Virus record (IMG/VR): IMGVR_UViG_3300012979_000178
Length of the DNA: 25,123 nucleotides
DNA from: a virus
Strand: one strand, 5' to 3'
The translations under genes were made by a program, and so were the position numbers. Below are positions 8,505 through 24,906 of this stretch, piece after piece. Each line of letters starts with the position of its first letter. Positions within the stretch are counted from its first letter, which is position 1. The notes below the pieces were generated by a model. It saw nothing but the letters and a program-made list of their open reading frames with translations, ran no database searches and was not told the DNA's origin.

Positions 8505-9400
8505 TGAAATTTTTTGTTGATTTTGAAGCAAGTATGGAAAATGAATGTATTATCTCTATTGGTGCAATTAGTGAAGAAGGTCATGAATTTTCTACCTTGG
8601 TAAAACCTTCAAAAGAAGGAGAAAAAATCGGTGAATTTGTAGAAAAATTAACTGGAATTTCAAATAAAGATTTAGAAACTGCTCCAACAGCAGATGAAGC
8701 ATTTTGCGCCTTTTTTGATTGGATAATTACAATCAATTCCAATGGCGCACCTAATTATTACTTTTATGGAAAAAATGATAAAAGTTTCTTAAATAATACT
8801 GTCAAATATATGACAGATAATAAAGCAATTATTTTTATCTATTCTATACTGGCATCATATACTGATTATACAACTATTGTTAATAAACATTATAGTATTA
8901 GTGGTATTGGTCTTTTTAAACTTTATAGAGGATTGAGTTCTGATATTGAAACTCAACGACACGACGCTCTTGAAGATGCCACTATGTTAAAATGTGTTGT
9001 TGAGAATTTAAAAGATATAAAAATTGAAGTTCCTGAAACTTCAAAAAGAAAACCTATTTTGTATAAAAAGTTAGAAGACAATCCAGATTTTGTTTGTTCA
9101 AATTTTGTTAATAAAAAATTTTGTCCTCCTATCTTCTATGAATGGCCCTCGGATAAACTTTTAGCAGATACTCATGCAGATGAAAATAATTGGCTTATTA
9201 AATGTAGCTTTGGAGATCATACTAAATATTTTGATTGTATTGATACTGCTGTTATTTGGGTCATCAAATATTTAAGCAAAGGCATGAGTTGCAAACGTAA
9301 AGAAGATGTTGAAACAGTAGCTAAAAAAATTCATAATGCTGTAATTAATAATGTAAAACATTATTCTATGTCCTGGGAGTACAATAAAAAGGAGAATTAA
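8504..9400 (+). CDS. DEDDh (DnaQ/RNase T-like) 3'-5' exonuclease domain with a C-terminal Cys/His-containing extension
   Basis: Exo I motif FFVDFEAS and Exo III motif HDALEDA (H-x4-D) are present. The layout LTGI...L..AP resembles the epsilon-subunit proofreading exonuclease. Confidence 0.7.
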   Translation: MKFFVDFEASMENECIISIGAISEEGHEFSTLVKPSKEGEKIGEFVEKLTGISNKDLETAPTADEAFCAFFDWIITINSNGAPNYYFYGKNDKSFLNNTVKYMTDNKAIIFIYSILASYTDYTTIVNKHYSISGIGLFKLYRGLSSDIETQRHDALEDATMLKCVVENLKDIKIEVPETSKRKPILYKKLEDNPDFVCSNFVNKKFCPPIFYEWPSDKLLADTHADENNWLIKCSFGDHTKYFDCIDTAVIWVIKYLSKGMSCKRKEDVETVAKKIHNAVINNVKHYSMSWEYNKKEN

Positions 9401-10076: not shown

Positions 10077-10811
10077 ATGCCTGAATTAAATTTAGCTGGA
10101 TCAAAAATAGGATTTTGGGATGTCTTAGAAAAAGATAGTGAAAAATCTAAAGAAAAACATTAGAGTTATTGGAAATGTAAATGTAATTTATGCGGAAATA
10201 TTTATTCTGTTAGAGGTTCAAGTTTAAATAATGGTCAAAGTCAAAAATGTGGAACCTGTTCTCGTTCTTACAATGTAAAAGATGAGACTGGGCAAAAATA
10301 TAATAAATTAACAGTTTTATATAAAACAGAGTCAAAAAATAATAGAGTAATGTGGAAATGTCGATGTGATTGTGGAAATCATATTGACGTAAGTGGAACT
10401 GATTTAAGGACTGGTGCAGTTAAATCTTGTGGAAAATGCCCAGGAAAAGAAAGCTTAGGAGAAAAATTAATTAGAGAAAAATTGACTCAATTTGGAATTG
10501 ATTTTATCCAAGAATATACTTTTAAAGATCTTATTTTTGAATCTGGTCATTATGCACGTTTTGATTTTTATATACCCTCTCATAATTATATAATAGAATT
10601 TGATGGTATCCAACATTTTAACTATGATAATAACTCTTCTTGGAATACAGAAAAAAATTTTTTAGAAACAAAAAAACGAGATAGTATAAAGAATAATTAT
10701 TGTTTTAATCATAATATTCCAATAATTAGAATTCCTTATGATTATAAAGAGGAGTTAACTGCTTTTGATTTAATTCCTCAAACTTCTAAATTTTTAATTA
10801 AGAAAGGGTGA
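10077..10811 (+). CDS. triple zinc-ribbon (W-x-C-x-C-x-CG ... SCGxC repeats) plus C-terminal DUF559/Vsr-like PD-(D/E)xK endonuclease domain; one in-frame TAG at 10161
   Basis: RBS AAAGGAGAAAAT and ATG at 10077. The frame is continuous with track ORF 10350..10811 apart from the TAG. The C-terminus reads FDFYIP..IIEFDGIQH ... RDSIK...NIPIIRIPY, which fits the DUF559 pattern. It is paralogous to 12336..13187. Confidence 0.6.
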
Positions 10812-10817
10812 AAAATA

Positions 10818-12248
10818 ATGTCAACTCATTGTGGATATGTGGTAAATATTAAAGAATTAAGACCTCACTCTAATGCAGATAAACTTCAAATAGCAACTTT
10901 TTTTGGTAATGATACTTGTGTGGGACTTGATGTAAAATTAGATGATATTGGAATTTATTTTCCCTCTGATTTACAACTTTCTGTAGAATTTTGCGAACAG
11001 CATAATCTTGTTCGCCGTAAGGATGACAGCGGTAACAACGTTGGTGGATATCTTGATCCCGACAAAAGAAACATTCGCACTATAAAACTTCGTGGTGAGA
11101 AGAGTGATGGTCTATTTATGCCTCTTCAGTGCCTCGCTTATACTGGCATTAATCTTGATGACCTTAATATTGGAGATCGTATTGATATTGTAAATGGGCA
11201 TGAAATTTGTAAGAAATATATCCCTCGCTCCAATAGACGTAAAGGTTCTTATTCCGAGGGCAATAAGACTCGTAAACATAAAGTTCCTGTTGCTCCGCTC
11301 TTTGCGGAACACGCAGATACAGAACAACTTGCTTATAATCTTAATGCCTTTAAAGCGGGCGACCAAATTGAAATTACTTTAAAAATGCACGGTACTAGCC
11401 ATCGTGTTGGCTATCTTGAAACCCTTCAGGGATATAAAAGAACATTTGCGGATAAAATTTTCCGGCGTGAAGGTACTCCAGAATATAATTGGGGTTATGT
11501 TGCTGGAACTCGTAGAACTGTTCTCGAAGATTATAATGGCGGTTATTATGGCAGCAACGAGTTTAGAGAAGTACATACTAAATTTTTCAATGGCAAACTT
11601 TGGAAGGGTGAAACTGTATATATGGAAATTGTAGGTTTCACTAATGATGGTACTCCTATTATGTCCAATTGCGAAAACAAAAAATTAAATGATAAAGATT
11701 TTATTAAGCAGTATGGAGATATTACCGTCTTCTCTTATGGTTGCGATCCTGCTGGATATACAGAACTTCCTATGAAAGATACTGGATTGCCTTATGGCGC
11801 AGTAGTTTCTGTTCCAAAATCAGAAATTTACGTATATCGTATGACTATGACTAATGAAGATGGTAATATAGTAGAATACACCCCTGACTTTATGAGATAT
11901 CGTTGCGAACAGATGGGCGTTAAAACTGTCCCTGTTCTTTGGAAAGGTTTTATTCCTTATACTATAGATGATGTTGAATCTGCCATTCCCGGTCATAGAA
12001 TTATACTTAAAGAAGGAGAAAGTGCCGGAGAATGGATTAAAAATGTTGCCGAGCAATATTACGATGGTCCAGATCCGGTTGGTAAGACTCATACTCGAGA
12101 AGGCGTTGTAGTAAGAATTATAAATCGTCCTAAATTCTGTGCTTATAAGCACAAAAATCATTCATTTAAGATGGTTTCTGGAATTATTACTGAGGCCGTT
12201 GCGGATAGCAATATTGAAATTAGCGAAGATATTTTAGCAGAACTTTAA
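10818..12248 (+). CDS. RNA ligase (Rnl2-type nucleotidyltransferase motif KMHGTS) fused to an N-terminal EMAP/Myf-type tRNA-binding OB fold
   Basis: The N-terminal VVNIKELRPHSNADKLQIATF matches the tRNA-binding-domain signature (HPNADKL). Motif I is K-x-H-G-T-S, as in T4 Rnl2 (KIHGTN). There is a GC jump at about 10985. Confidence 0.75.
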   Translation: MSTHCGYVVNIKELRPHSNADKLQIATFFGNDTCVGLDVKLDDIGIYFPSDLQLSVEFCEQHNLVRRKDDSGNNVGGYLDPDKRNIRTIKLRGEKSDGLFMPLQCLAYTGINLDDLNIGDRIDIVNGHEICKKYIPRSNRRKGSYSEGNKTRKHKVPVAPLFAEHADTEQLAYNLNAFKAGDQIEITLKMHGTSHRVGYLETLQGYKRTFADKIFRREGTPEYNWGYVAGTRRTVLEDYNGGYYGSNEFREVHTKFFNGKLWKGETVYMEIVGFTNDGTPIMSNCENKKLNDKDFIKQYGDITVFSYGCDPAGYTELPMKDTGLPYGAVVSVPKSEIYVYRMTMTNEDGNIVEYTPDFMRYRCEQMGVKTVPVLWKGFIPYTIDDVESAIPGHRIILKEGESAGEWIKNVAEQYYDGPDPVGKTHTREGVVVRIINRPKFCAYKHKNHSFKMVSGIITEAVADSNIEISEDILAEL

Positions 12249-12335: not shown

Positions 12336-13187
12336 ATGCCATTTAAAGATAGAACTAATATAAAATATGGAAAATTAACTGCAAAAGAATATTTAGGTAA
12401 AAGTATGTGGAAATGCATTTGTGATTGTGGTCAAGAAAAAATCGTGTATGGAGGCCACTTGGAAAGTGGTCATACTTAGTCATGTGGTTGTATTCGTCCT
12501 CCAAGAACTAAATTATATGGACAAAAATTTGGTAGATTAACAGTATTAAACTGGGAAGGAAACGGCAAGTGGCGTTGTCAATGCGAATGCGGAAATGAAG
12601 TATTGGTTCAAACCGATAATTTAAAATCTGGCAATACCAAATCTTGTGGCTGCTTACAAAAAGACAAAGCAAGTGACGCATCATTCATTTCTCTTGTTGG
12701 TAATCGTTATGGAAAACTTTTAGTAATTGAACGAGTAGAAAATAATCGTTTTGGACATGTATGCTATCGCTGTAAGTGCGATTGTGGTGGTGAAACTATT
12801 GTTGATGCTACAAACCTACGTAATGGCAATACCAATTCCTGTGGTTGTATTAAATCCAAAGGAGAAATGATTATCAACAACTGGTTACTAGAACATAATT
12901 TCGATTTCCGCAGTCAATATTCTTTTGACGATTGTATTTTATCTACCGGCCGCAGACCTTTTTTCGACTTCGTTTTATTCAAGAATGATAAACCATATCT
13001 TGTGATAGAATATAACGGCCGCCAACATTACGAAGTAACCGGCGGATGGAACACAGAAGAGCAGTTTGCTAAAACACAACGCCGTGATAGCGAAAAACTA
13101 CAATGGTGTGAAGATAATCACTATCCAATATTGATAATAAAATATGATGAAGATATTGAAAAAATATTGGAGGAAAGATTATTATGA
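12336..13187 (+). CDS. paralogue of 10077..10811: triple zinc-ribbon plus DUF559/Vsr-like endonuclease; one in-frame TAG at 12477
   Basis: RBS GAAAGGATTTATATT and ATG at 12336. It is in frame with track ORF 12603..13187 and shares the repeat pattern W.C.C.CG...N(T/S)(K/N)SCGC. The C-terminus reads FFDFVLF...LVIEYNGRQH...RRDSEK. Confidence 0.6.
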
Positions 13188-13618: not shown

Positions 13619-13620
13619 GA

Positions 13621-13652
13621 AAAAGCGGGATATTCCCGCTTTTTTGTTTTTT
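13621..13652 (+). terminator. rho-independent terminator
   Basis: Stem AGCGGGA / TCCCGCT with a TAT loop, followed by a T-run. Confidence 0.8.
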
Positions 13653-13675
13653 ATAAATATTTATGGTATAATAAA
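13644..13675 (+). promoter_or_regulatory. conserved promoter copy 6 (-35 TTGTTT, extended -10 TGGTATAAT)
   Basis: Motif match upstream of pncA. Confidence 0.65.
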
Positions 13676-13695: not shown

Positions 13696-14253
13696 ATGAA
13701 GATTGTAATTGTTGTTGATTTACAAAATGATTTTATTACAGGCTCTCTTGGTTCCACCGAAGCGCAGGCTATTATTCCAAATGTAAAAGACCATCTGCGG
13801 TCATTAGATGAAAAAGATCATGTAATTTTTACCATGGATACTCATTTTGATGACTATCTTGAAAGCGGTACTTTGGAAAGCGAAAAGCTTCCCATTAAGC
13901 ATACCATTAAAGGAACTGATGGTTGGCTAATTTTTGAAGATTTAACCTCTTTGCCTCCGGGACCGCAGACATTGGCACCAAAGCAGACTTTTTGCTCTTG
14001 GGATTTTGATAGTGTTATTGTAGACGAAGTTTGTAATTATCTTAAAAATAATGAAAATCTTGAAAAAGATCTAGAATTTGAAATTTTTGGAGTTTGTACT
14101 GATATTTGCGTTGTTTCTATCGCCCTTTATCTAAGATCTTTTTATCCTAGTGTTAAAATCACTTGCCTTAAAGATCTTTGCGCGGGCTCTTCTCCTGCGG
14201 CACATGAAGCTGCTTTGACTGTTATGAAATCTTGTATGATTGATATTACGTAA
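13696..14253 (+). CDS. pncA: nicotinamidase (PncA), isochorismatase family
   Basis: N-terminal VVDLQNDF, a conserved Lys region (IKHTIKGTDGW) and GVCTDICV carrying the catalytic Cys. Confidence 0.75.
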   Translation: MKIVIVVDLQNDFITGSLGSTEAQAIIPNVKDHLRSLDEKDHVIFTMDTHFDDYLESGTLESEKLPIKHTIKGTDGWLIFEDLTSLPPGPQTLAPKQTFCSWDFDSVIVDEVCNYLKNNENLEKDLEFEIFGVCTDICVVSIALYLRSFYPSVKITCLKDLCAGSSPAAHEAALTVMKSCMIDIT

Positions 14254-14267
14254 ACGGAGGAATGATT

Positions 14268-15176
14268 ATGCCAGTACATGACGATCTTGGAACTCGCATG
14301 AAAGAGTTCTATGAACAAGTCCCACGTTTTCGATTAACTAGAAGAATGCCCGTGGTAATTAGACTCGACGGGAAATCCTTCCACACCTTTACACGCGGTT
14401 TTGAAAAGCCATTTGATGAAGTGCTTGGTAGAGCGATGCGAGAGACTATGAAATATCTTTGTGAGAATATTCAGGATTGCGTCCTTGGATATACTCAATC
14501 CGATGAAATTACTTTAATTCTTGTTGACTATAAAGAATTAAATAGTTCTGCTTGGTTTAATTATGAAATTCAAAAAATGTGTTCTATTTCTGCTTCTATG
14601 GCAACTATGGTATTTAATAAATTTTTTGAAAAAGAAGTTAATAAATGGACAAACCAAGCTTTTCCAACTGATTATTTAGGATATAATACTGGGAAAATTT
14701 CAGTTGCTGATATTGAACTAAAAGGTACTTATATAAAATCTCTCAATAAAGGCGCAATGTTTGATTCTCGTTGTTTTAACATTCCAAAAGAAGAAGTAGC
14801 CAATTTGATCTATTGGCGACAACTAGATGCTACGCGTAATTCTATTCAAATGGTAGGTCAAGCTAATTTCTCTCATAAAGAACTTCAAAATAAATCTTGT
14901 AATGATATTCAAAATATGCTTTTTGAAAAGAAAAATATTAATTGGAATGATTTCCCAACTCACTTAAAACGTGGCTCTTGTTGCGTTAAAATAGAGACTT
15001 CTACTGTTTTTGCTATCGAGCATGAAGACGGTACTGTTGAAACTGGTGCCGTTGAGCGACCTCATTGGGAAATTGATCTGGAAATTCCGATCTTCAAAAA
15101 TGAAGGACGAGAATATATTAATCGTCGTATTCTTTATAAAGAAAAGCCTGAAACAACTATTGCTTATATTAATTAA
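14268..15176 (+). CDS. Thg1-like protein (TLP), a 3'-5' nucleotidyltransferase acting in tRNA 5'-end repair or addition
   Basis: VVIRLDGKSFHTF...KPFD...DCVLGYTQSDEITL matches the Thg1 core (VVRLDGRNFHRF...AYGQSDEYSF). The start was chosen at 14268 because its spacing to GGAGG is better than for the ATG at 14262. Confidence 0.75.
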   Translation: MPVHDDLGTRMKEFYEQVPRFRLTRRMPVVIRLDGKSFHTFTRGFEKPFDEVLGRAMRETMKYLCENIQDCVLGYTQSDEITLILVDYKELNSSAWFNYEIQKMCSISASMATMVFNKFFEKEVNKWTNQAFPTDYLGYNTGKISVADIELKGTYIKSLNKGAMFDSRCFNIPKEEVANLIYWRQLDATRNSIQMVGQANFSHKELQNKSCNDIQNMLFEKKNINWNDFPTHLKRGSCCVKIETSTVFAIEHEDGTVETGAVERPHWEIDLEIPIFKNEGREYINRRILYKEKPETTIAYIN

Positions 15177-15180
15177 AAAT

Positions 15181-15219
15181 AAAATCCTCTTATATTTTAA
15201 GAGGATTTTTGTTTTTTAT
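15181..15219 (+). terminator. rho-independent terminator
   Basis: A 12-bp stem AAAATCCTCTTA / TAAGAGGATTTT followed by a T-run. Confidence 0.8.
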
Positions 15220-15244
15220 AAAAAAATATGATATAATATATATA
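15209..15244 (+). promoter_or_regulatory. conserved promoter copy 7; near-identical to copy 3
   Basis: Sequence TTGTTTTTTATAAAAAAATATGATATAATATATATAGAAAA. Confidence 0.7.
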
Positions 15245-15271
15245 GAAAATAAAAAAAAGGAATTTATAAAA

Positions 15272-15433
15272 ATGAATCTTGATGATACAATTAAAAGAAT
15301 AAAAAGCGATGTTGCCGAGATTAGTTCTAAAATGATGACTGGAAAAACTATTGAAGAACAAGTTAAAGAAATTGTACTAAAAGATAGTGGTAAAAAAGTA
15401 AAAAATTCTATTATAGGTAAAAATATAAAATGA
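15272..15433 (+). CDS. small 53-aa hypothetical protein
   Basis: RBS AAAAGGAATTTATAAAA and ATG at 15272, which is in frame within track ORF 15209..15433. Its TGA overlaps the next start. Confidence 0.4.
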   Translation: MNLDDTIKRIKSDVAEISSKMMTGKTIEEQVKEIVLKDSGKKVKNSIIGKNIK

Positions 15434-15960
15434 ATAATTTTCAAAAATTTTTTGGTCACTTACACACAGTAAATAAACATCGCTTTATAGTTTGTAAACT
15501 ATGCTTTAAATGCGGTTTATATTGGCAAGGACTTACCCATGATCTTTCTAAATATTCGCCAGTAGAATTTATCAATGGTGTAAAATTTTATACTGGAAAA
15601 GCCTCTCCTCATCTTGGTGAACGAAAAGCATATGGATATAGCAAGGCTTGGTTAAATCACAAAGGACGCAATAAGCACCATGGAGAATATTGGCAAGATA
15701 TTGGATCAGATGGATTTACTCATCCCATTGATATGCCAAAAAATTATCTTATTGAAATGATTTGTGATAGAGTCGCGGCTTCAATGATTTATCTTGGAGA
15801 AAATTATACAGATAAAGCACCTTTGGAATATTATCAAAGCCATAAAGATGAAAATCAATTTAGTGATTATACAAGATTTTATTTAGAAGAATATTTAACA
15901 AATATCGCTAATTATGGTTTTGATGCTGCTATGAAGAGTAAAACTACATATAAATGCTAA
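15430..15960 (+). CDS. small HD-domain-like phosphohydrolase
   Basis: H...H (GHLHTVNKH), then THDLSK about 28 aa later, then HHGEYWQD...D. This fits HD motifs I-V. Confidence 0.55.
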   Translation: MNNFQKFFGHLHTVNKHRFIVCKLCFKCGLYWQGLTHDLSKYSPVEFINGVKFYTGKASPHLGERKAYGYSKAWLNHKGRNKHHGEYWQDIGSDGFTHPIDMPKNYLIEMICDRVAASMIYLGENYTDKAPLEYYQSHKDENQFSDYTRFYLEEYLTNIANYGFDAAMKSKTTYKC

Positions 15961-15987
15961 CTATTAAATAAGCTAGGAGAAAATTAA

Positions 15988-16440
15988 ATGAAACTTGAAA
16001 TTGATCTTGATCTTAATAAAATTGACTATGATTCTATTAATAAATAGATAAAACAAAAAATTGAAGATTTAGATATTGCTAATGTTTATACTATTGATGA
16101 TAGAATTAAAAATGAATTAAATGCTCAGATTAGCCAAGTAATTAATGAAAATATGTATCGAAATTATTGGTCTAATACATTAGATAATAAAACCGAAGGA
16201 CATATTCAAGACGAGCTAAGAATTCTCATTAAAGAAGCAATAACCCCATCAGTGAATAATGTTTTTAATAAAATTTCAGAAGAAGAAATAGAAAAAATGA
16301 TTTTACATATTCTTCCGAAAGCATTAGTTATGCTACTGATAGATAATCTTAAAGGTTCACTTTATTCTTTACAAAATGACCAAACCTACTTAATGGAATC
16401 AGTTATAGAAAATCATATAAACCGTAGATTAAATAGATAA
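15988..16440 (+). CDS. hypothetical protein with one in-frame TAG at 16045
   Basis: Strong RBS AGGAGAAAATTAA and ATG at 15988. It is in frame with track ORF 16153..16440. Confidence 0.5.
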
Positions 16441-16454
16441 GGAAATTAATAATT

Positions 16455-17690
16455 ATGATGAAACTTTCTCCTATTATTACTCATCTTACCGATACTGACC
16501 TTTATAAATTTACTATGTTACAGACTATGTTTCATAGACATACAAATCTTAATGGCACTTATCTTTTTAAATGCCGAAACGCAGGAGTTAAATTTACCAA
16601 AGAAATGATGGATGAGATCAATGCGCAGATTGATCATCTTTGTACTTTGCGCTTTACAGATGAAGAACTTGATTATCTTGGCTCTTTACGCTTTATTAAG
16701 CCTGATTTTATTGAATTTCTTCGCATTTGGCATCCTTTGCGCAGATATGTAAATTGTTATATTTATGATCATCCGGGATGTCCAGATGAAGGAGAACTTT
16801 TTGTCGAAGTTCATGGTCCACTCTTTAACACTATGATGTTTGAAATTTATCTTCTTGCTATTGTAAATGAAGTATATTTTCGTATGAAGTATAATTATCT
16901 TGACCTCATTAATGGCGCGAGAGAAAAACTTTACCACAAACTTAGCGGATTTAATCATTTTGATGAAGAAGGCAATAAAGCCCCTCTCTATACTTTTAAA
17001 TTTGCGGAATTTGGTACCAGAAGAAGATTAAGTCGTGAATGGCAGGATTATGTAATGAAAGAACTTATTGCTACTGGATATTGCGCCGGTACCTCTAACG
17101 TATATCTTGCTATGAAATATGGTATCAAAGCAATTGGTACTTATGCGCATGAATATGTTCAGATGTTTCAGGGTATTCCCGGCATTCAGCTTGCTTATAC
17201 CAACAAAGCCGCTCTTGAAGAATGGTTTGAAGAATATCAGGGCGACCTTGGAACTGCATTGACTGATACTCTTGGCACTGATATTTTTCTTCGTGATTTT
17301 AATAAACTTCAAGCTATGTGTTATACCGGAGTACGTCATGATAGTGGAGATCCTTATGAATGGGGCGAAAAGATTATCGAACACTATCTTAAACTCGGCA
17401 TCGACCCCAAAACCAAAACTCTTCTTTTTAGTGATAGTCTCGATTTTGAAAAAGCACAGGCAATTTATGACCATTTTAATGGGCGTATTAATGTAAGTTT
17501 TGGTATTGGTACTTATCTTACTAATGACACAGGAGTAAATCCCCTCAATATCGTTATTAAACTTCAGTATGTAAATGATCATCCAGTAGCAAAATTAAGC
17601 GACGTAGAAGGCAAAACTATGTGCCAAGATGAAAATTATGCTAATTACTTGGCACGCGCAGTTAATTATAGATTAGAAGAAGGTATTTAA
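16455..17690 (+). CDS. pncB: nicotinate phosphoribosyltransferase (PncB)
   Basis: It tracks E. coli PncB closely: TDLYKFTM, FGTRRRLSREWQ, GTSNVYLA, GTYAHE, RHDSGDP.EWGEK, GIDPKTK.LLFSD, FGIGT.LT, PLNIVIKL, PVAKLSD. Confidence 0.9.
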   Translation: MMKLSPIITHLTDTDLYKFTMLQTMFHRHTNLNGTYLFKCRNAGVKFTKEMMDEINAQIDHLCTLRFTDEELDYLGSLRFIKPDFIEFLRIWHPLRRYVNCYIYDHPGCPDEGELFVEVHGPLFNTMMFEIYLLAIVNEVYFRMKYNYLDLINGAREKLYHKLSGFNHFDEEGNKAPLYTFKFAEFGTRRRLSREWQDYVMKELIATGYCAGTSNVYLAMKYGIKAIGTYAHEYVQMFQGIPGIQLAYTNKAALEEWFEEYQGDLGTALTDTLGTDIFLRDFNKLQAMCYTGVRHDSGDPYEWGEKIIEHYLKLGIDPKTKTLLFSDSLDFEKAQAIYDHFNGRINVSFGIGTYLTNDTGVNPLNIVIKLQYVNDHPVAKLSDVEGKTMCQDENYANYLARAVNYRLEEGI

Positions 17691-17691
17691 T

Positions 17692-18204
17692 ATGAATTTC
17701 ATTTTTCGAGGATTCGAAATAAATCCAAAAGGCAAGGAAAAAATTTATATCAACAATAAAGAACTTCTAGGTGATTGGCACGAAGGATATTTTACTCGAT
17801 ATGCGAGAACTGCTGTCGTAGGAGTCCCTGTAATTGAAACAGAATGGGATAGTTATGTTATTGATGAACGAACCATTTGTCCTTGCCTTTCTTATATTGA
17901 TTCTAAAGGAAAACATTTTGGTCATATGGACATAATCACTTGTATTGACGCAAATGATGAAATTGATAAATTTTTACTTCAATGGAATAGTGAGGGACAA
18001 GAATTCCAAGTTATTTTCTTAAATTGCCAAGAAAAATTATATGGAACTAATACAAGCTATTTTATTAGTTTTGATTTTTTTGATTGGGCTGAATTTGTAG
18101 CAAACGTTCTTCAAAATATCCACGGAATTTATAAATCTATTGAAATAACTAATAATGCTTTTTCTGATCCTAATTTTTTTAAAAAAGGAATTATTCCGTG
18201 GTAA
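17692..18204 (+). CDS. hypothetical protein translationally coupled between pncB and nadM
   Basis: Its ATG lies 1 nt after the pncB TAA. I recognised no motif. Confidence 0.6.
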   Translation: MNFIFRGFEINPKGKEKIYINNKELLGDWHEGYFTRYARTAVVGVPVIETEWDSYVIDERTICPCLSYIDSKGKHFGHMDIITCIDANDEIDKFLLQWNSEGQEFQVIFLNCQEKLYGTNTSYFISFDFFDWAEFVANVLQNIHGIYKSIEITNNAFSDPNFFKKGIIPW

Positions 18205-18236
18205 TAATAAATTAAAAATCAAATGAGGTATAATAA

Positions 18237-18800
18237 ATGTTTGGAGCAATTTTGTTTAGGGCACAGCCCTTTCACAATGGACATTTGCATATGATTAAAA
18301 CTGCTTATGCCGATTGTAAAAAATTTGGTATAGATTTATATATTTTTATTGGTAGCGCAGATAAATATGGTACTAAAAGAAATCCTTTACCTATTGAGCT
18401 AAGAAGAAATTTAGTAATTAATTCTTTAAATGAATATTTTTCTGAAGAAGAATTAAATCATATTTATGTATTTACTCTTGATGATCTTAGCGATGAAGCA
18501 AATAACACTTACGCTTGGGGAGATTATTTATATATTAAAATGTGTTCTAAAGCTAATGATCCAGAATTTATTTTTTACTATAGTGATAAACCTTCTATTG
18601 TGTTAAGTTGGTTTGCTCCAGATTTATGTAAAAATATAATGTATAAATTTTTACCGCGTTATCATACAATTAATGCTACTGCAATAAGAGAAGCTATTAT
18701 TGATAATGAATTTTGTCCTAATTGGTTGGAATATGATATACCAGAAACGGTAATAGCAGAATACAATACTATCAGAGAATATTTATTGGAGGCTATTTAA
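18237..18800 (+). CDS. nadM: NadM-type nicotinamide/nicotinate mononucleotide adenylyltransferase (cytidylyltransferase fold, HxGH)
   Basis: FRAQPFHNGHLHMIK and IFIGSADK...NPLP match archaeal NadM (GRFQPFHKGHL; IGIGSAQ). Confidence 0.75.
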   Translation: MFGAILFRAQPFHNGHLHMIKTAYADCKKFGIDLYIFIGSADKYGTKRNPLPIELRRNLVINSLNEYFSEEELNHIYVFTLDDLSDEANNTYAWGDYLYIKMCSKANDPEFIFYYSDKPSIVLSWFAPDLCKNIMYKFLPRYHTINATAIREAIIDNEFCPNWLEYDIPETVIAEYNTIREYLLEAI

Positions 18801-19531
18801 TGAAAGATTTAGTGCAAGATATAATTAAATGGATTAAAGAATATTTTGAAATGTCCCCTCCTAATACAAAAGCAGTAATTGGGATTTCCGGAGGCAAAGA
18901 TTCAACCATTGCTACTGCGCTTTTGGTTGAAGCCTTAGGTAAAGATAGAGTAATTGGAGTACGAATGCCCCAGGGTGTTCAATCTGATATTGATATGGCT
19001 AGAGAAGTATGTGATTATTTTGGTATTGAATCTTATGAAATCAATATTGGAAATATTTGTGAAACTTTATATCAGACTATTGGAGAAAATTATAAAGAAA
19101 ATCCAGTAGTTTCTACTAATACTCCAGCAAGAATACGTATGACTATTCTATATGCTATTGCTGGAATGTATAATGGTAGAGTTGTTAATACTTCAAATGC
19201 TTCTGAAATTTTTATAGGTTATTCAACTAAAAATGGCGATGGCGCAGGAGATTTTAGTATTACACGCGATTTTACTGTAAGAGAATTAAAAAAAATCGGT
19301 TATTATCTTGGACTTCCTAAAAAATTTATTGACAAAATTCCCGAAGATGGAATGAGTGGTAAGACTGATGAAGAAAAATTAGGTTTTTCATATGAGGTAA
19401 TAGATGATATTTTGATGTATAATGAATTTCCTGATGAAGCTCTTACCCAAAAGATTACTAATTTATACACCAAAAATTTACATAAAATTTCTCCAATGCC
19501 ATATTATTATAATAAGGGGTATTTAGAATGA
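18800..19531 (+). CDS. nadE: NH3-dependent NAD+ synthetase (NadE)
   Basis: PP-loop GISGGKDS; overall NadE-like. The start overlaps the nadM stop. Confidence 0.85.
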   Translation: MKDLVQDIIKWIKEYFEMSPPNTKAVIGISGGKDSTIATALLVEALGKDRVIGVRMPQGVQSDIDMAREVCDYFGIESYEINIGNICETLYQTIGENYKENPVVSTNTPARIRMTILYAIAGMYNGRVVNTSNASEIFIGYSTKNGDGAGDFSITRDFTVRELKKIGYYLGLPKKFIDKIPEDGMSGKTDEEKLGFSYEVIDDILMYNEFPDEALTQKITNLYTKNLHKISPMPYYYNKGYLE

Positions 19532-19977
19532 TTAATAAATTTGAAGGAGATTATGAATTTTTAAGTAATTTTTTCTTTTCTCCTTTTTCTTTTAAAGGAA
19601 TTGAATATCCAACTAATGAACATTTCTTTCAAGCTATGAAAACTGTTGATCGAAATCTTCAAAAAGCAATTGCTCAGGCGCCAACCCCGGGTAAAGCTAA
19701 AAGATTAGGACGTCAAGTAAATTTAATACCGGATTGGGAAACTATTAAAGACGCCGTAATGTATCAAGGACTAAAATTAAAATTTTCTGATCCAATTCTT
19801 AAAGAAAAACTTTTAGCAACAGGAAATGAAAAATTAGAAGAAGGAAATTGGTGGCATGATAATTTTTGGGGTAATTGCTACTGCCCAAAGTGTAAAAACA
19901 TTGAAGGGGTAAATAAACTTGGCAAATTACTTATGCTTCTTAGAAAGGAGCTAAAAAATGAACAAAGCAACACGTAA
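19528..19977 (+). CDS. NADAR (YbiA-like) domain protein
   Basis: F.G.Y.FLSNF..S.F...G..Y.T.EH.FQA.K...AK..GR...W, which is the NADAR pattern. ATGA overlap with nadE. Confidence 0.75.
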   Translation: MINKFEGDYEFLSNFFFSPFSFKGIEYPTNEHFFQAMKTVDRNLQKAIAQAPTPGKAKRLGRQVNLIPDWETIKDAVMYQGLKLKFSDPILKEKLLATGNEKLEEGNWWHDNFWGNCYCPKCKNIEGVNKLGKLLMLLRKELKNEQSNT

Positions 19978-20233
19978 ATGGCACATTTGGGATTCACCAA
20001 AAAAGAATTTACCTTTATGCTGGGATGGACAAGTTTTAGTTTTTGATACCAAAGAATCTGCTATAGATTTTTTACATTCTGCTATTGCCCATCAAGAAGA
20101 TTTAGATAAAGAATTTGATAAAGCAATTATTTCTTGTGGTTTAATTAATCCTATTAATCCAACTATTAATGCAACATATAAACGAATTAAATATAATTCA
20201 GATTTTAATATAATTTATCTTGAAGATATTTAA
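19958..20233 (+). CDS. hypothetical protein of 91 aa
   Basis: RBS AAGGAG. It is the last gene before the terminator. Confidence 0.5.
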   Translation: MNKATRKWHIWDSPKKNLPLCWDGQVLVFDTKESAIDFLHSAIAHQEDLDKEFDKAIISCGLINPINPTINATYKRIKYNSDFNIIYLEDI

Positions 20234-20235
20234 AT

Positions 20236-20270
20236 GTAAAAAGCTCTAATTGATTAGAGCTTTTTTGATT
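20236..20270 (+). terminator. rho-independent terminator
   Basis: Stem AAAAAGCTCTAAT / ATTAGAGCTTTTT. Confidence 0.8.
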
Positions 20271-20300
20271 TTCTTTTTTTAATATGTTATAATATATATA
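20266..20300 (+). promoter_or_regulatory. conserved promoter copy 8 (-35 TTGATT, TGTTATAATATATATA)
   Basis: Motif match. Confidence 0.7.
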
Positions 20301-20585: not shown

Positions 20586-21275
20586 ATGGCTGTATATGCT
20601 TTATCTGACTTACATGGTAATAAAGAATTATTTAAAAAGGTTAAATCTTTTTTAAATGAAAAAGATACAGTATATTTTCTTGGGGATGCTGCTGATAGAG
20701 GTCCTGATGGTTGGGAACTTATTAAAACAATTTATGAAGACTCTCAATTTATTTACGCTAAAGGCAACCACGAAGATATGCTTGTAAATTCTATTAAAGA
20801 ATTCTGTGAAATGAATTCCAAAAGTGGAGATTGTGATTTACTTTTTTACAACGGCGGTAAACAGACCTTTAATGCTTGGCGTAAAGATGGGGCAAAGAAG
20901 AGTTGGGCTACCAAGCTTGAAAAATTACCGGCTTGGCTTGCTTATATTAATACTAAAGGTCAGCTTATCAGTATGAGTCATGCTGGTTTTACTCCAAAAC
21001 CCAACGAATTTCCTTCTCATAGTGATTTAATGTGGAGTAGAGATCACTTTCTTGATGATTGGGATGAAGAGGTAAAAAATTGTATTATTGTTCATGGACA
21101 TACTCCTATTCTTTTTCTTGCAGAAGATTTAAAAATCAAAGAAGAAGAACTTGAGCTTAAACCGTTATGGTATTGTAATAACAAAAAGGTTTGTATTGAT
21201 TTGGGCGCGCATATGACTAATGCCACAACTCTTTTAAATCTTGATACATTTGAATATTATTTGTTTCAAGTCTAA
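20586..21275 (+). CDS. lambda-PPase-family metallophosphoesterase (Ser/Thr phosphatase or polynucleotide 2',3'-phosphatase type)
   Basis: Motifs SDLHGN, GDAADRG, GNHE, W.RD and HGHT are present. The architecture resembles lambda PPase and the CthPnkp phosphatase domain. Confidence 0.8.
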   Translation: MAVYALSDLHGNKELFKKVKSFLNEKDTVYFLGDAADRGPDGWELIKTIYEDSQFIYAKGNHEDMLVNSIKEFCEMNSKSGDCDLLFYNGGKQTFNAWRKDGAKKSWATKLEKLPAWLAYINTKGQLISMSHAGFTPKPNEFPSHSDLMWSRDHFLDDWDEEVKNCIIVHGHTPILFLAEDLKIKEEELELKPLWYCNNKKVCIDLGAHMTNATTLLNLDTFEYYLFQV

Positions 21276-21342: not shown

Positions 21343-21816
21343 ATGAAAAAAATTTATTTACTTTGTGGTATTCCCGGTTCAGGAAAAAGCACTTGGGCAA
21401 AAAGCCAACTTGATAATAAATCTGTCTGGATTTCAAGAGATCAGATAAGATTCTCTATGGTTTCAGAGTCAGAAGAATATTTCTCTAAAGAAAAAGAAGT
21501 ATTTCGAGAATTTATTAAAGAAATTAATTTAGCAATTAGAAATAAAAATTTTGATAATATTTATATAGATGCAACACATCTTAACACTATAAGTAGATAT
21601 AAAGTTTTGGATAAAATTGCTTTAAAAGATGTTGATGAACTTAATATTATTTTCTTTAATACCCCTTTGAATATTTGTCTCGAAAGAAACTCTTATCGTT
21701 TTGGAAGAGAAAAAGTACCAGAAGAAGTAATTAAAAAAATGTATAAAACTGTTGTTCCTCCTCATCTTGATGATAAATATTTATATAATAATATTATAGT
21801 AAAAGGAGATGAATAA
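21343..21816 (+). CDS. pnk: polynucleotide 5'-kinase, a P-loop domain of the T4 Pnk kinase type
   Basis: LLCGIPGSGKST (Walker A), RD (catalytic Asp region), and a C-terminus with LERNSYRFGREKVPEEVIKKMYK that resembles T4 Pnk ([22 protein letters not shown]). Confidence 0.8.
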   Translation: MKKIYLLCGIPGSGKSTWAKSQLDNKSVWISRDQIRFSMVSESEEYFSKEKEVFREFIKEINLAIRNKNFDNIYIDATHLNTISRYKVLDKIALKDVDELNIIFFNTPLNICLERNSYRFGREKVPEEVIKKMYKTVVPPHLDDKYLYNNIIVKGDE

Positions 21817-21922: not shown

Positions 21923-22861
21923 ATGTATAGTGTATATAAAATTACCAATATTATAAATTAGAAAAATTATATTGGTTCAAGTATTAGACCTGAAAAGCGT
22001 TGGAAAGAACATATTAATAATGCTAATAACCCAAATTCATAGGCATATAATTATCCGTTACAATGTGCTTTTCGAAAATACGGAATTGAAAATTTTAATT
22101 TTGAAATTTTAAAAGATGATTTTAATACTCAAAGTGAAATGACAGAATATGAATAGTTAATGATTATTTTTTATGATTCATTGAATAATGGGTATAATCA
22201 AACTTTACAAACAAATTAGAGTGAAATAGCAAAAGAAAATTTAGAAAAATATTTATAGACAATTCGTTGTAAATGTGCTAAAATAGATAAAAATAATAAT
22301 ATTTTAGAAATTTATAATTCTTATCATGAAGCTGCTAAAAAAAATGGAATGGATCCTGATAATTGTGCTAGTTCAATTAGAGATGTTTGTAAAGGAAAAA
22401 CTTCAAGTGCTAAAGATAAATTTATTTTTCGAGATTTAGATGCTAATGATAATATAATTATTTAGCCGTTTAAACCCTATAAAGGCAAAAAAGCAATAAT
22501 TGGTATTCATATAGAAACAAAAGAAGAAATTTATTTTAATTCTATTAGTGAAGCAGCTAAAATATTAAATACAGATCGTTGGAGTATAACCCAATGTATA
22601 CAAGGAGTATCTCGATACTCCAAAGTTAAAAACTATATATTTAGAGAATTAGATTAGAATGGCAATATTGTAGAAGTTGAAAATTCCATAGAAAATATTT
22701 TACAAAAATATAATTAGACAAATCCGGAAATAAATGGTGAAAGACACACTTTTAAAGACTGGTGTAAAATTTATGGAATTTCTGAAAGTTCTGTTAGAAA
22801 AAGAATAAAAAAAGGAATGGGTGTTGTAGAAGCAATTACAACCCCAAAAGAGAGGTGATTT
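21923..22861 (+). CDS. GIY-YIG homing endonuclease (I-TevI/Seg-like) with 8 in-frame TAG codons
   Basis: The N-terminus VYKITNIIN*KNYIGSS...EKRWKEHI corresponds to the GIY-YIG and RWKEH motifs (compare I-TevI IYQIKNTLNNKVYVGS...EKRWKRHF), followed by NGYN. The frame is continuous for 313 codons apart from the TAGs. It ends at the TGA at 22859. Confidence 0.7.
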
Positions 22862-22863
22862 TT

Positions 22864-23429
22864 ATGGCAATCTGGATTACTTCAGATTGGCATTAGTTTA
22901 TTTTTGCCATGACAGAGAATTTATCTGGGGTCCAAGGCATTTTAATTCTGTTGAAGAAATGAATGAAACTATTGTAGATAGACATAATTCTTTGGTTCTT
23001 CCAGAAGATGATGTATATGTATTGGGCGATTTGATGCTTAATGATAATGAAAAAGGTATTGAATTAATTAAGCGTATGAATGGTAAACTTCATATTGCTA
23101 TTGGAAACCATGACACAGCACCAAGAATTGAATTGTATAAAACTTTACCGAATTTAGTAGATATTAATTACGTTCACACATTTAAATATAGAAAATATAA
23201 TTTCTATTGTTCTCATTATCCTACATTAACAGGAAATCTTGAAGCTGAATCGCTTCATCAAGTAGCAATTAATCTATATGGACATACTCATCAGTCGAGT
23301 AAATTCTATGAAGATAGACCATATATGTTTCATTGTGGTATGGATTCAAATGCTTGTTATCCTGTAAATATTGATTACATTATTGATAAGTGTAAAAATA
23401 AAGTGGCTGAATGCATTGAAATGCTTTAA
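22864..23429 (+). CDS. calcineurin-like metallophosphoesterase with a frame disruption after codon 10. It is a possible pseudogene, sequencing indel or recoding site.
   Basis: RBS AGAGAGG and ATG at 22864 give MAIWITSDWH (motif I D-x-H), then a TAG. The remaining motifs (GDLML, GNHD, GHTH) are in the -1 frame, which is track ORF 22887..23429. Confidence 0.55.
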
Positions 23430-23466: not shown

Positions 23467-24906
23467 ATGTATCTTTATCTTATTCCAATTGCCGTTATTG
23501 CTGTTATTGTTCTCTTTTGCCTCGGTTATGTAAAGGCTCCTCCGGATCAGGCTTATGTAATTTCCGGGATGATGAAGAAACCTCGTATTCTAATTGGACG
23601 AGCAGGTTTTAAAGTTCCTTTCTTTGAACGTCTTGACAAACTTGCTCTTGGTGCTATTCAGATTGATGTAAAGACTGCTAGTTCGGTTCCCACTGCTGAA
23701 TATATCAATGTAAGAGTTGATTCTAATGTAAATGTAAAAATTGGTCAGGCTCCTGAAATGCTTGAACTTGCTTGTCAGAATTTTCTTAATGTAAAGAGAG
23801 ATGTTATCAATCAGAAGATCAGAGATTTGCTCGAAGGTAATATCCGTGAAATCGTTGGTAGCATGAAGCTTACTGAAATGGTAAGTGATAGAAAGGCTTT
23901 TTCTGAAAAGGTACAGGAAAACGCAGTACCCGATCTTGCGAGATTTGGTCTTGAGCTTATTTCTTTTAATGTTCAGAATTTTGTAGATGATAATGGTGTA
24001 ATTGATAATCTTGGTATTGATAATGTAGAGCAGATTCGCAAGAAGGCTGCTATTGCTAAGTCTGATGCCCAGAGAGAAATTGCAATTGCTGAAGCTGAAA
24101 ATACTAAAATTGCAAATGATGCTCGTGTAAAGGCGGCTGAAGAAATTGCTGCCCGAGACAATGATCTTGAAATTAAGCAGGCGGCTCTTAAGCAGGCAGC
24201 TGATACTGAAAAGGCTCGTGCAGCAGCTGCTATGGCAATCGAATCTGAAAATCAGAATAAACTTAAAAATATTGCAGCTACGGATGCTGAAATTGCAAAG
24301 GCTGAACGCGAAGCCGATCTGAAGCAGAAAGAAATCGAACTGAAAGAATATGAACTTGACGCTCTTGTCCGCAAGCAGGCAGACGCAGATAAATATGCAG
24401 TAGAGCAGAAGGCAGCCGCAGAACTTGCTGTTCGTCAGAGAAAAGCAGAAGCTGAAAAGTTTGAACGTGAACAGCGTGCAGAAGCTGAAAAGTTTGCAGC
24501 AATTCAGGAAGCAGAAGCAGAAAAAGCAAAGGCTGATGCCGCTAAATATGCCGCACTTGCAGAAGCAGAAGGTATTGCCGCTGTAAAGAAAGCTGAAGCA
24601 GAAGGTATTCGTGCTACTGGTATTGCAGAAGCAGAAGGTATTGAAAAGAAGGCAGAAGCCCAGAAGAAGATGGGTGAAGCTTCCGTTCTTGAAATGTACT
24701 TCCAGATGCTTCCGAACGCTGTAGCAAGTGCTGCCGCACCTCTTGAAAATGTTGGAAACATTACAATGTATGGCGACGGCAATCAATCTAAGCTCGTCGG
24801 CGACGTAATGAAGACTGTAAATCAGGTTACCGAAGGTATGAAAGCTAACGGTATTGATATCGCGTCACTTATTGCTGGCGCACTCTCCAAGAAAGACAGT
24901 AAGTAA
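23467..24906 (+). CDS. floT: flotillin (FloT/YuaG-type SPFH/band-7 protein): N-terminal TM segment, SPFH domain, and an E/A-rich coiled coil
   Basis: RBS AAGGAG. It is collinear with B. subtilis FloT: LEGNIREIVGSMKLTEM...FSEKVQ...DLARFGLELISF; KQADADKYAVEQKAAAE; MLPNAVASAAAPLENVGNIT. Confidence 0.85.
   Translation: MYLYLIPIAVIAVIVLFCLGYVKAPPDQAYVISGMMKKPRILIGRAGFKVPFFERLDKLALGAIQIDVKTASSVPTAEYINVRVDSNVNVKIGQAPEMLELACQNFLNVKRDVINQKIRDLLEGNIREIVGSMKLTEMVSDRKAFSEKVQENAVPDLARFGLELISFNVQNFVDDNGVIDNLGIDNVEQIRKKAAIAKSDAQREIAIAEAENTKIANDARVKAAEEIAARDNDLEIKQAALKQAADTEKARAAAAMAIESENQNKLKNIAATDAEIAKAEREADLKQKEIELKEYELDALVRKQADADKYAVEQKAAAELAVRQRKAEAEKFEREQRAEAEKFAAIQEAEAEKAKADAAKYAALAEAEGIAAVKKAEAEGIRATGIAEAEGIEKKAEAQKKMGEASVLEMYFQMLPNAVASAAAPLENVGNITMYGDGNQSKLVGDVMKTVNQVTEGMKANGIDIASLIAGALSKKDSK

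Follow-up and report, generated by a model that had tools for sequence, protein, structure and literature searches.

A phage-borne four-enzyme gene cassette for a putative nicotinamide to NAD+ route, and its accessory distribution among related viral loci

The viral DNA stretch IMGVR_UViG_3300012979_000178 of the IMG/VR database (25,123 bp, GC ~30%, every real gene on the + strand; referred to as the window) encodes four intact enzymes that would together form a self-sufficient route from nicotinamide (Nam) to nicotinamide adenine dinucleotide (NAD+). These are a PncA-type nicotinamidase, the nicotinate (NA) phosphoribosyltransferase PncB, a NadM-type (archaeal-like) adenylyltransferase, and the NH3-dependent NAD+ synthetase NadE. 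An earlier reading of the letters alone (the sequence-only reading) had proposed this route, and the catalytic residues, the hidden Markov model (HMM) scores, and the synteny in 37 viral loci bear it out. Each enzyme lies where that reading had placed it, all four are intact, and their catalytic motifs are kept; the family matches go well past what chance would give. The source would be a large phage of gut Clostridia-type hosts in which TAG is read as a sense codon. We give this explanation as a whole, including the role in infection discussed below, a probability of about 0.62.

PncA finds its best matches in the Protein Data Bank (PDB) among nicotinamidases, namely those of Mycobacterium tuberculosis and Pyrococcus horikoshii (3pl1, 1im5). 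All of the 24 viral homologs have the same catalytic triad (D8/K96/C138) and the same metal ligands (D48/H50/H69). The metal ligands align with D49, H51, and H71 of the M. tuberculosis enzyme, and the fourth metal ligand of that enzyme, H57, is not conserved in the alignment of the 24 viral homologs. PncA has the Asp/His/His metal site that distinguishes nicotinamidases among the isochorismatase-like hydrolases, and its family is found in 7 GenBank phage records. PncB scores 500 bits on NF003704 (cutoff 379) and 434 bits on TIGR01514 (cutoff 270). Its best PDB match is 1yir (E = 3e-94), and the phospho-His motif GTxAHE is kept. The enzyme is rare in GenBank phages (16 of 50,697 records).

The adenylyltransferase has been assigned with a profile (A3) built from 8 viral homologs and searched against the PDB. 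The top 15 matches are all nicotinamide mononucleotide (NMN) adenylyltransferases (NMNAT), NadM, or NadR proteins. The best of them, MJ0541 (1f9a), is matched over the full length with an E-value of 4.9e-21 and is followed by NadM-Nudix and NadR proteins, and the first enzyme outside NAD metabolism, phosphopantetheine adenylyltransferase (PPAT), appears at an E-value of 7e-4. The protein carries PFHNGH and INATAIR, which are motifs of the HxGH and ISSTxxR type. NadE scores 176 bits on TIGR00552 (cutoff 64) and 178 bits on the Pfam model and has an SGGKDS P-loop; no glutaminase domain was found in it.

The same enzymes travel together in other viruses. When IMG/VR was scanned with PncB as the seed, 24 viral loci were obtained; their PncB proteins are 43–86% identical, and their contigs reach 333 kb. 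Together with the window and the Sinorhizobium phage Phosso they make 26 PncB loci, and 37 related viral loci are available overall (designated by L numbers where they have to be told apart). Of the 26 loci, 24 have a PncA homolog and 21 have NadE at most 6 kb from PncB, and the association of PncB with the module holds in 12 of 12 loci seeded with a further gene of the window, DUF5662. The core that is conserved across the 37 loci consists of PncA, PncB, and NadE. What varies is the adenylyltransferase: it is of the NadM type in 10 loci, a separate protein of the NadD type in L014, L016-19, and L023, and part of a NadD-NadE fusion in L004 (8020-9342) and L021 (11079-12539), the NadD half of the latter scoring 157 bits on TIGR00482 (cutoff 112). 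Each fusion is a two-step enzyme leading from NaMN to NAD+. L022 has a classical NadM-Nudix. In L011 (6041-7465) and L012 (7930-9384), the adenylyltransferase of the window type is fused to a Nudix domain and an NrtR winged helix. This fusion to an NrtR-like Nudix and winged helix-turn-helix ties the NadM-type subfamily to the metabolism of NAD and ADP-ribose (ADPR). The conserved unit is PncA, PncB, NadE, and either NadD or NadM, a setting that argues strongly for a part of the divergent PncA and of the NadM-type enzyme in NAD+ synthesis. The identities of the enzymes, their motifs, the operon structure, and this co-occurrence can be read directly from the loci.

The NAD-synthesis genes are not a fixed part of the phage genome. 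The flanking proteins of L030 are 69–96% identical to those of the window, yet PncA, DUF5662, PncB, NadM, and NadE are all absent, and the order is Thg1 ... u170-NADAR-u91-u85-Metallophos-AAA_33-...-flotillin (u170 being the 170-amino acid (aa) protein of the window). L028 has u150-u170-DUF5662, a NADAR-like stretch, and Metallophos, without PncA, PncB, NadM, NadE, or Thg1. On the other hand, L032, with a PncB 95% identical, has the order PncB-x-u170-NadM-NadE-NADAR, and L010, with a PncB 74% identical, has the four enzymes in another order. Since L030 and L028 share the backbone without the NAD enzymes while L032 and L010 have them, the NAD-synthesis genes form a cassette that is accessory and sits in an early region of variable content, gained and lost between near-identical phages.

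From these loci we infer the biological role and the sequence of the last two of the four steps. The phage promoters would express the cassette early in infection. PncA would convert Nam to NA and NH3, and PncB would convert NA and phosphoribosyl pyrophosphate (PRPP), with ATP, to nicotinate mononucleotide (NaMN). The NadM-type enzyme would then form nicotinate adenine dinucleotide (NaAD) from NaMN and ATP, and NadE would form NAD+ from NaAD, NH3, and ATP, the NH3 released in the first step balancing that used in the fourth. Phage pathways named NARP1, NARP2, and NARP3 counter NAD+-depleting defences (10.1101/2024.02.11.579819; PMC13464706). The cassette may act like NARP2, with four steps and at a higher ATP cost, and would maintain the NAD+ supply in infection by reusing the nicotinamide set free in NAD+ cleavage, whether by host NADase effectors (TIR, SIR2, SEFIR) or by the NAD+-consuming enzymes of the phage itself. 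Because nicotinamide is the product of the TIR, SIR2, and SEFIR NADases, the cassette could recycle an NADase product as NARP2 does.

Several observations weigh against this explanation. Against the NCBIfam equivalog model for nicotinamidase, NF008623 (cutoff 174), PncA scores no more than 17 bits; because the protein is divergent and does not pass the equivalog model, its assignment rests on residues and synteny. As a single sequence, the adenylyltransferase scores 47 bits against a cutoff of 127 and lies below every curated NCBIfam cutoff, although the archaeal NMNAT models are its top matches, and its preference between NaMN and NMN is not readable from sequence. NadE scores almost equally with the NMN synthetase of Francisella (3fiu, 108 bits) and with the NadE of P. 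horikoshii (2e18, 110 bits). Unrelated genes (Thg1, a 150-aa open reading frame (ORF), and the 170-aa ORF) interrupt the module. The route costs ~3 ATP and PRPP per NAD+, above NARP2, which is odd for a dedicated counter-defence, and the NAD-dependent DNA ligase of L001 and L014 suits metabolic provisioning no less than counter-defence.

The near-tie of NadE bears on the order of the last two steps. Under the Francisella order, NadE would be an NMN synthetase (NaMN to NMN), the NadM-type enzyme would then convert NMN to NAD+, and NaAD would never be formed. The window NadE is short and archaeal/Francisella-like, it scores 66–86 bits with classical bacterial NadEs, lower than with 3fiu, and its partner is an adenylyltransferase of the NadM and not of the NadD type, as in Francisella (PMC3376133). 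However, archaeal NadM takes both NMN and NaMN, and the archaeal NadE paired with it is a true NaAD amidase (PMC3376133). Also, NadE domains 43% identical to the window NadE are fused to a bona fide NadD in L004 and L021, compared with 33% identity between the window NadE and the Francisella NMN synthetase (the 43% was obtained with the L021 domain, which shows the same near-tie between 3fiu and 2e18). Tyr27 and Gln133 of the Francisella enzyme, which have been proposed to favour NaMN, align with Pro and Gly in the window NadE. Because related NadE domains are fused to NadD, which is NaMN-specific, the classical order from NaMN through NaAD to NAD+ is judged quite probable and the Francisella order unlikely. 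The window adenylyltransferase would be one that accepts NaMN, given that archaeal NadM is bifunctional and that NadD fills the same slot in relatives; no NadD-type gene was found in the window.

The purpose of the route can be read in two ways. A counter-defence role fits the presence/absence polymorphism of the cassette and its position among early anti-defence-like genes. The same biochemistry could instead serve metabolic provisioning, as an auxiliary metabolic gene set that supplies NAD+ to an NAD-dependent DNA ligase or to ADP-ribosyltransferases of the phage, or that aids a salvage-poor host. The direct neighbour of the module in L001 (a 651-aa ORF downstream of NadE) and in L014 (4547-6676) is an NAD-dependent DNA ligase, which would be an immediate user of the NAD+ made there. 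Salvage of the NARP2 type yields an excess of NAD+ also when no defence system is present. NAD-jumbo phages have been described with 15 types of NAD+-consuming enzymes and with complementary phage and host pathways (PMC11662467). The jumbo phage PA5oct raises the expression of host pncA-pncB1-nadE in infection (PMC7318152), which suggests a general demand for the route. Against provisioning stand the polymorphism between L030 and the window together with the early anti-defence-like location, both typical of conditional counter-defence cargo, and the fact that PncA specifically captures nicotinamide, the direct product of the NADase effectors. We consider provisioning as the sole purpose possible, at clearly lower odds than the explanation preferred above; provisioning and counter-defence are not mutually exclusive.

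A quite different reading takes the window for DNA of a bacterium or plasmid, or for a mis-binned fragment, and its genes for ordinary host salvage genes. PncA, PncB, and NadE are common in bacteria, no virion structural gene with a family match was found in the window, and a megablast search of 13-21 kb against the GenBank phages gave no match. A search for longer copies of the window returned only copies of 23.7 kb and 4.3 kb; the phage is known only from metagenomes. Nevertheless, the window holds a T7 gp5.9-like protein, a PHA02142-type RNA ligase, a GIY-YIG/NUMOD homing endonuclease, and PHROG matches, all of its genes share one strand and a repeated promoter of phage type, and it reads TAG as sense. 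The same module is found on 24 + 11 IMG/VR viral contigs, and related contigs carry a phage DNA polymerase and Phage_VG64. On the phage-type genes, the promoter, the TAG recoding, and the viral relatives, a bacterial origin was rejected as extremely unlikely.

The recoding is seen in several ways. Reading TAG as sense raises the coding coverage of the + strand from 76% to 89% and restores a 651-aa ORF with 7 in-frame TAGs, the 311-aa GIY-YIG/NUMOD homing endonuclease with 8 TAGs, and ORFs of 283, 244, and 150 aa with one TAG apiece. The Pfam GIY-YIG match spans 3 in-frame TAGs, and several seeming intergenic gaps are coding sequence broken by TAG. The window thus has in-frame TAGs inside otherwise intact homologous genes, as do stop-codon-recoded phages. 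In relatives, the positions aligned with TAG hold mostly Gln or again TAG, with Gln at 4 of 10 aligned non-stop residues in a small sample, which weakly suggests that TAG may code for Gln in a code-15-like manner. A tRNA search of the window found none, hence no suppressor tRNA within the 25,123 bp. The four NAD enzymes contain no TAG codon, so they are translatable whether or not TAG is suppressed at that stage.

The extended -10 motif ATDNTATAATAWA occurs in 8 + strand copies where 0.53 are expected by chance, a count reached in none of 100 shuffles. The sites (2675, 3178, 5837, 8088, 13663, 15228, 20284, and 21304) are all intergenic and usually lie directly 3' of a hairpin terminator, and they mark short early transcription units. 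A scan of the window for the sigma-70 consensus showed no enrichment (54 against 49.8 in shuffles). The two adjacent operons under a conserved promoter proposed by the sequence-only reading are confirmed by these copies and by the terminators (Table 1). Operon 1 consists of PncA and Thg1, and operon 2 of the 53-aa ORF, DUF5662, the 150-aa ORF, PncB, the 170-aa ORF, the NadM-type gene, NadE, NADAR, and the 91-aa ORF. The genes named earlier in this interval are real, and Thg1, the 53-aa ORF, DUF5662, and the 150-aa ORF, which had been passed over, are present as well. The coupling of the last genes by overlap holds at three of five junctions: NadM/NadE overlap by 1 nucleotide (nt), NadE/NADAR by 4 nt (ATGA), and NADAR/91-aa ORF by 20 nt. 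PncB is separated from the 170-aa ORF by 1 nt and the 170-aa ORF from NadM by 32 nt, with a ribosome-binding site of its own.

Table 1. Features of the NAD cassette region, regions read with TAG as sense, and DUF5662 in relatives (positions are those of the window unless a locus is named).
Feature	Position	Strand	Size or role	Basis or remark
Hairpin terminator, end of upstream unit	13619..13645	+		12-bp stem, 5 GC pairs, then T run
Extended -10 promoter motif ATGGTATAATAAA, operon 1	13663..13675	+		match to ATDNTATAATAWA
PncA-type nicotinamidase	13696..14253	+	185 aa; Nam to nicotinate + NH3	Pfam Isochorismatase 60 bits
Thg1-like 3'-5' nucleotidyltransferase	14262..15176	+		Pfam Thg1 108 bits; phrog_4717 298 bits
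Hairpin terminator, operon 1	15181..15209	+		
Extended -10 promoter motif ATGATATAATATA, operon 2	15228..15240	+		match to ATDNTATAATAWA
53-aa ORF	15272..15433	+	first gene of operon 2	stop overlaps DUF5662 start (ATGA)
DUF5662 protein	15430..15960	+	176 aa	126 bits
150-aa ORF	15988..16440	+		in-frame TAG at 16045
PncB nicotinate phosphoribosyltransferase	16455..17690	+	411 aa; NA + PRPP to NaMN	NCBIfam, PDB
170-aa protein (u170)	17692..18204	+	170 aa	no family
NadM-type (archaeal-like) NMN/NaMN adenylyltransferase	18237..18800	+	187 aa	profile against PDB, motifs
NadE, NH3-dependent single-domain NAD+ synthetase	18800..19531	+	243 aa	TIGR00552, Pfam
YbiA-type NADAR	19528..19977	+		Pfam 94 bits; TIGR02464 88 bits (cutoff 74)
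91-aa ORF	19958..20233	+	last gene of operon 2	89% identical in L030
Hairpin terminator, operon 2	20238..20265	+		then promoter motif at 20284-20296
TAG-as-sense regions	159-635, 646-2601, 2878-3051, 10077-10811, 12336-13187, 15988-16440, 21923-22858			
DUF5662 in relatives	L034 7001-7522			also L036-L045

The association of the module with DUF5662 is the most novel lead of this analysis. DUF5662 lies directly upstream of PncB in 12 of 12 DUF5662-seeded viral loci while other genes change places, and this adjacency is found in three PncB clades (47%, 65%, and >70% identity). L034, a 174-kb contig, has the order adenylyltransferase-NadE-DUF5662-PncB-PncA with overlapping or abutting boundaries, and L028 is the sole viral exception, with DUF5662 and without PncB. 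The family is also abundant in metagenome-assembled genomes of gut Clostridia (at least 593 matches). No NAD genes were found within 6 kb of DUF5662 in the 80 best bacterial loci (gut Clostridia), where its commonest neighbour is an energy-coupling factor (ECF) S-component. A niacin link through this S-component was considered and dropped, as only a folate-family model matched, below its cutoff.

Across 25 aligned sequences, DUF5662 is 65–75% identical, with H10, H37-D38, H77, H83-H84, and D113 invariant. The AlphaFold2 (AF2) model is all-alpha with a predicted local distance difference test (pLDDT) score of 72, and the fold prediction hints weakly at an HD-type protein, possibly an HD-like metal hydrolase. 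No PDB sequence homolog of the family and no paper mentioning it were found. DUF5662 is probably a functional partner of the module that supplies an additional step. A bolder proposal is a five-part unit of PncA, DUF5662, PncB, the adenylyltransferase, and NadE, a deamidated 'NARP4' in which the Clostridia-derived DUF5662 would add a post-NADase step, either by turning ADP-ribose or a cyclic-ADPR-type product into a PncB precursor or by degrading an NAD-derived immune signal. We consider this proposal, including the roles suggested for DUF5662, rather unlikely; if true, the cassette would be a mechanistically distinct means of countering defences of the Thoeris, SIR2, or DSR type in gut Firmicutes.

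NADAR and the 170-aa protein had been counted by the sequence-only reading as parts of the pathway. As working parts of one NAD+-centred counter-defence unit, they would include a NADAR that processes ADP-ribose or reverses guanine ADP-ribosylation. NADAR is translationally coupled to NadE, overlapping its stop codon (ATGA) in the same operon, and the NadE-NADAR adjacency is seen again in L010 and L032. NADAR has been noted beside NAD salvage genes in other phages (PMC9503650), and every NADAR type so far tested takes guanine-ADPr off in vitro (PMC11125620). However, L030 has u170-NADAR-u91 (83%, 96%, and 89% identical, respectively) and no NAD-synthesis gene, and L028 has u170 (61%) and a NADAR-like stretch (61%, by tblastn only, with no intact gene called) without PncA, PncB, NadM, or NadE. 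NADAR is present in only 4 of the 26 PncB loci and u170 is restricted to a narrow clade, while the neighbouring backbone RNA ligase, Thg1, and phosphatase/kinase are another known context of NADAR (PMC9503650). Because both are kept in close relatives without the NAD-synthesis genes, NADAR and the 170-aa protein are phage backbone and not pathway members, so this part of the sequence-only reading does not stand, and a joint unit is quite unlikely.

The best PDB match of the NADAR protein is E. coli YbiA (2b3w, E = 2.6e-18). It has the catalytic Glu and Lys (E31/K38) and the acidic Glu of the last strand and aligns to YbiA through the LEEG...WG segment, which places it in the YbiA subfamily as defined in PMC11125620. 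It shares the NADAR fold, the early phage gene context, and the Glu/Lys spacing with T4 AdfN (gp30.3; E36/K43), but it is neither of the T4 gp30.3 type (His) nor of the DarG1 type (Asp) (PMC11125620, PMC11257639). An orthology with AdfN was rejected, the protein being YbiA-type and scoring 22.5 bits on Pfam Phage_30_3 (cutoff 36).

The 170-aa protein has ten homologs, 54–97% identical, only in close relatives. It gave no Pfam or NCBIfam match and only a weak match to phrog_8684, and no PDB sequence match even with a profile. The AF2 model has a pLDDT of 47 and is unusable; the protein is mostly beta-strand. Its ends, FIFRGF (N-terminal) and IIGNAFSNPELL (C-terminal), bear a putative likeness to the YopX phage family, for which HMM and PDB searches gave no support. 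The 53-aa ORF is called as a gene in L026 and is 88% identical in L028. The 150-aa ORF is reduced under the standard code to a 95-aa ORF (16153-16440); its TAG is kept in L028 and L029 and replaced by Gln in L036-38. Thg1 is co-transcribed with PncA and is found in only 5 of the 26 PncB loci; it is a backbone neighbour and not an NAD enzyme.

The backbone around NADAR looks like an RNA-repair and host-takeover set. The RNA-repair-like genes (8504-9400, 10818-12248, 14262-15176, 20586-21275, 21343-21816, and 22887-23429) comprise an RNase T-like exonuclease, a PHA02142 OB-fold RNA ligase, the Thg1-like protein, two metallophosphatases, and an AAA_33 kinase, and they are conserved in relatives without NAD genes. 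A 105-aa protein (6188-6505) matches the T7 gp5.9 RecBCD-inhibitor family (Pfam 32.9 bits, cutoff 24.5) and suggests that the region is an early anti-defence/host-takeover block. Two further proteins are unusual phage cargo: an 849-aa protein (3231-5780) that combines the shoulder domain of the Major Vault Protein with a Vault_3 repeat and is 77% conserved in L028, and a 479-aa flotillin/SPFH protein (23467-24906) at the other end of the region. Two paralogous ORFs (10077-10811 and 12336-13187), with one TAG apiece, carry repeated Cys-rich 'G.T.SCGC' zinc-ribbon-like motifs and, at the C-terminus, a nuclease-type domain resembling DUF2726; both are probably mobile genes of an endonuclease-like kind that were inserted among the backbone genes.

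The window module belongs to none of the three NARP types as they stand. For NARP1, Pfam scans of the window ORFs gave no Prs-like (Adps) or Nampt/Namat-like protein. For NARP3, neither PnuC nor NadR was detected in family scans of the window (PMC13464706). For NARP2, an NMN adenylyltransferase of the NadM/NatV family is present (18237-18800), but Nampt (NadV) was not found, the only phosphoribosyltransferase in the window being the nicotinate-specific PncB equivalog; a match to the PHROG nicotinamide phosphoribosyltransferase family is partial (84 bits). Like the window module, NARP2 (Nampt + Nmnat; NadV/NatV in Vibrio phage KVP40) is phage-encoded and accessory, has a NadM-family adenylyltransferase, and rebuilds NAD+ from nicotinamide, PRPP, and ATP by classical salvage chemistry (10.1101/2024.02.11.579819). 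It takes two steps through NMN, whereas the window route would take four through nicotinate, NaMN, and NaAD, needs the NadE amidation, and costs more ATP. The counter-defence by NARP2 has been validated by experiment, while the window module is known here from its genes.

The claim that a four-step route of this kind is distinct for a phage was overstated, as gut jumbo clusters and the same four enzymes in Phosso precede it. Gut 'NAD-jumbo phages' carry pncB-nadD-nadE clusters (e.g., Kuafu_71), for which a counter-defence hypothesis has been put forward (Microbiome 2024, PMC11662467). The origin in large phages of gut metagenomes, the clustered pncB, nadE, and adenylyltransferase genes, and the proposed NAD+ supply or counter-defence are shared with the window, and L014, L016-19, L023, L004, and L021 have exactly the pncB-nadD-nadE arrangement. 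The window differs in having a NadM-type in place of a NadD-type enzyme, PncA (so that the input is nicotinamide and not nicotinate), and DUF5662 directly upstream of PncB. The genes in that study were called with code 11, whereas the window reads TAG as sense. The term 'NAD-jumbo phage' needs a genome of >200 kb; the window is a 25-kb stretch, and its module-bearing relatives lie on contigs of 130-333 kb. The cultured jumbo phage Phosso (PV764938) has NadE, PncB, Nudix, a NadM-type NMNAT, and an isochorismatase-family 'hydrolase' within 6 kb. This hydrolase is 32% identical to the window PncA, identities to the window are only 30–32%, and the gene order is another. Phosso has an alphaproteobacterial host and a Nudix ADPR pyrophosphatase, and it shows no DUF5662 and no sign of TAG recoding.

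The nearest annotated phage with the PncA family of the window is phAss-1 ('Caudoviricetes code 15 clade', OQ749652, PMC10607447), which shares the gut habitat and recodes TAG to Gln. Its nicotinamidase (38% identical) and NadE homolog (39%) lie in one cluster, but the partners of the nicotinamidase there are Prs and a gene that bears the annotation nicotinamide phosphoribosyltransferase, in place of PncB. It has a 136-kb siphovirus-like genome, and PMC10607447 offers no pathway analysis. Outside phages, bacterial salvage operons (P. aeruginosa pncA-pncB1-nadE) and the archaeal pairing of NadM with NadE use the same enzyme families and chemistry (PMC3376133), while the window genes are phage-borne, under phage promoters, and divergent (PncA and NadM below the equivalog cutoffs). 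A literature search found no experimental study of a PncA/PncB-type phage pathway as counter-defence and no NARP4 paper.

The features that set this variant apart are the nicotinamidase entry, NadM in place of NadD, the DUF5662 linkage, the cassette polymorphism, and the code-15 context. Of these, the position of DUF5662 upstream of PncB in nearly every viral locus having DUF5662 and the gain and loss of the cassette are new. Phage NAD+ reconstitution is a recently recognised and broad counter-defence strategy, in which the deamidated four-enzyme version has been noted only bioinformatically. The window and its relatives give a clean evolutionary picture of a conserved core, an interchangeable NadD/NadM slot, fusions, and cassette gain and loss, and the natural variants with and without the cassette are ready-made isogenic-like pairs for functional study. 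The phage-only adjacency of DUF5662 and PncB offers a concrete handle on a widespread protein family without literature. Also, annotation with code 11 fragments the genes of this TAG-sense lineage, and surveys that use it may under-describe such modules.

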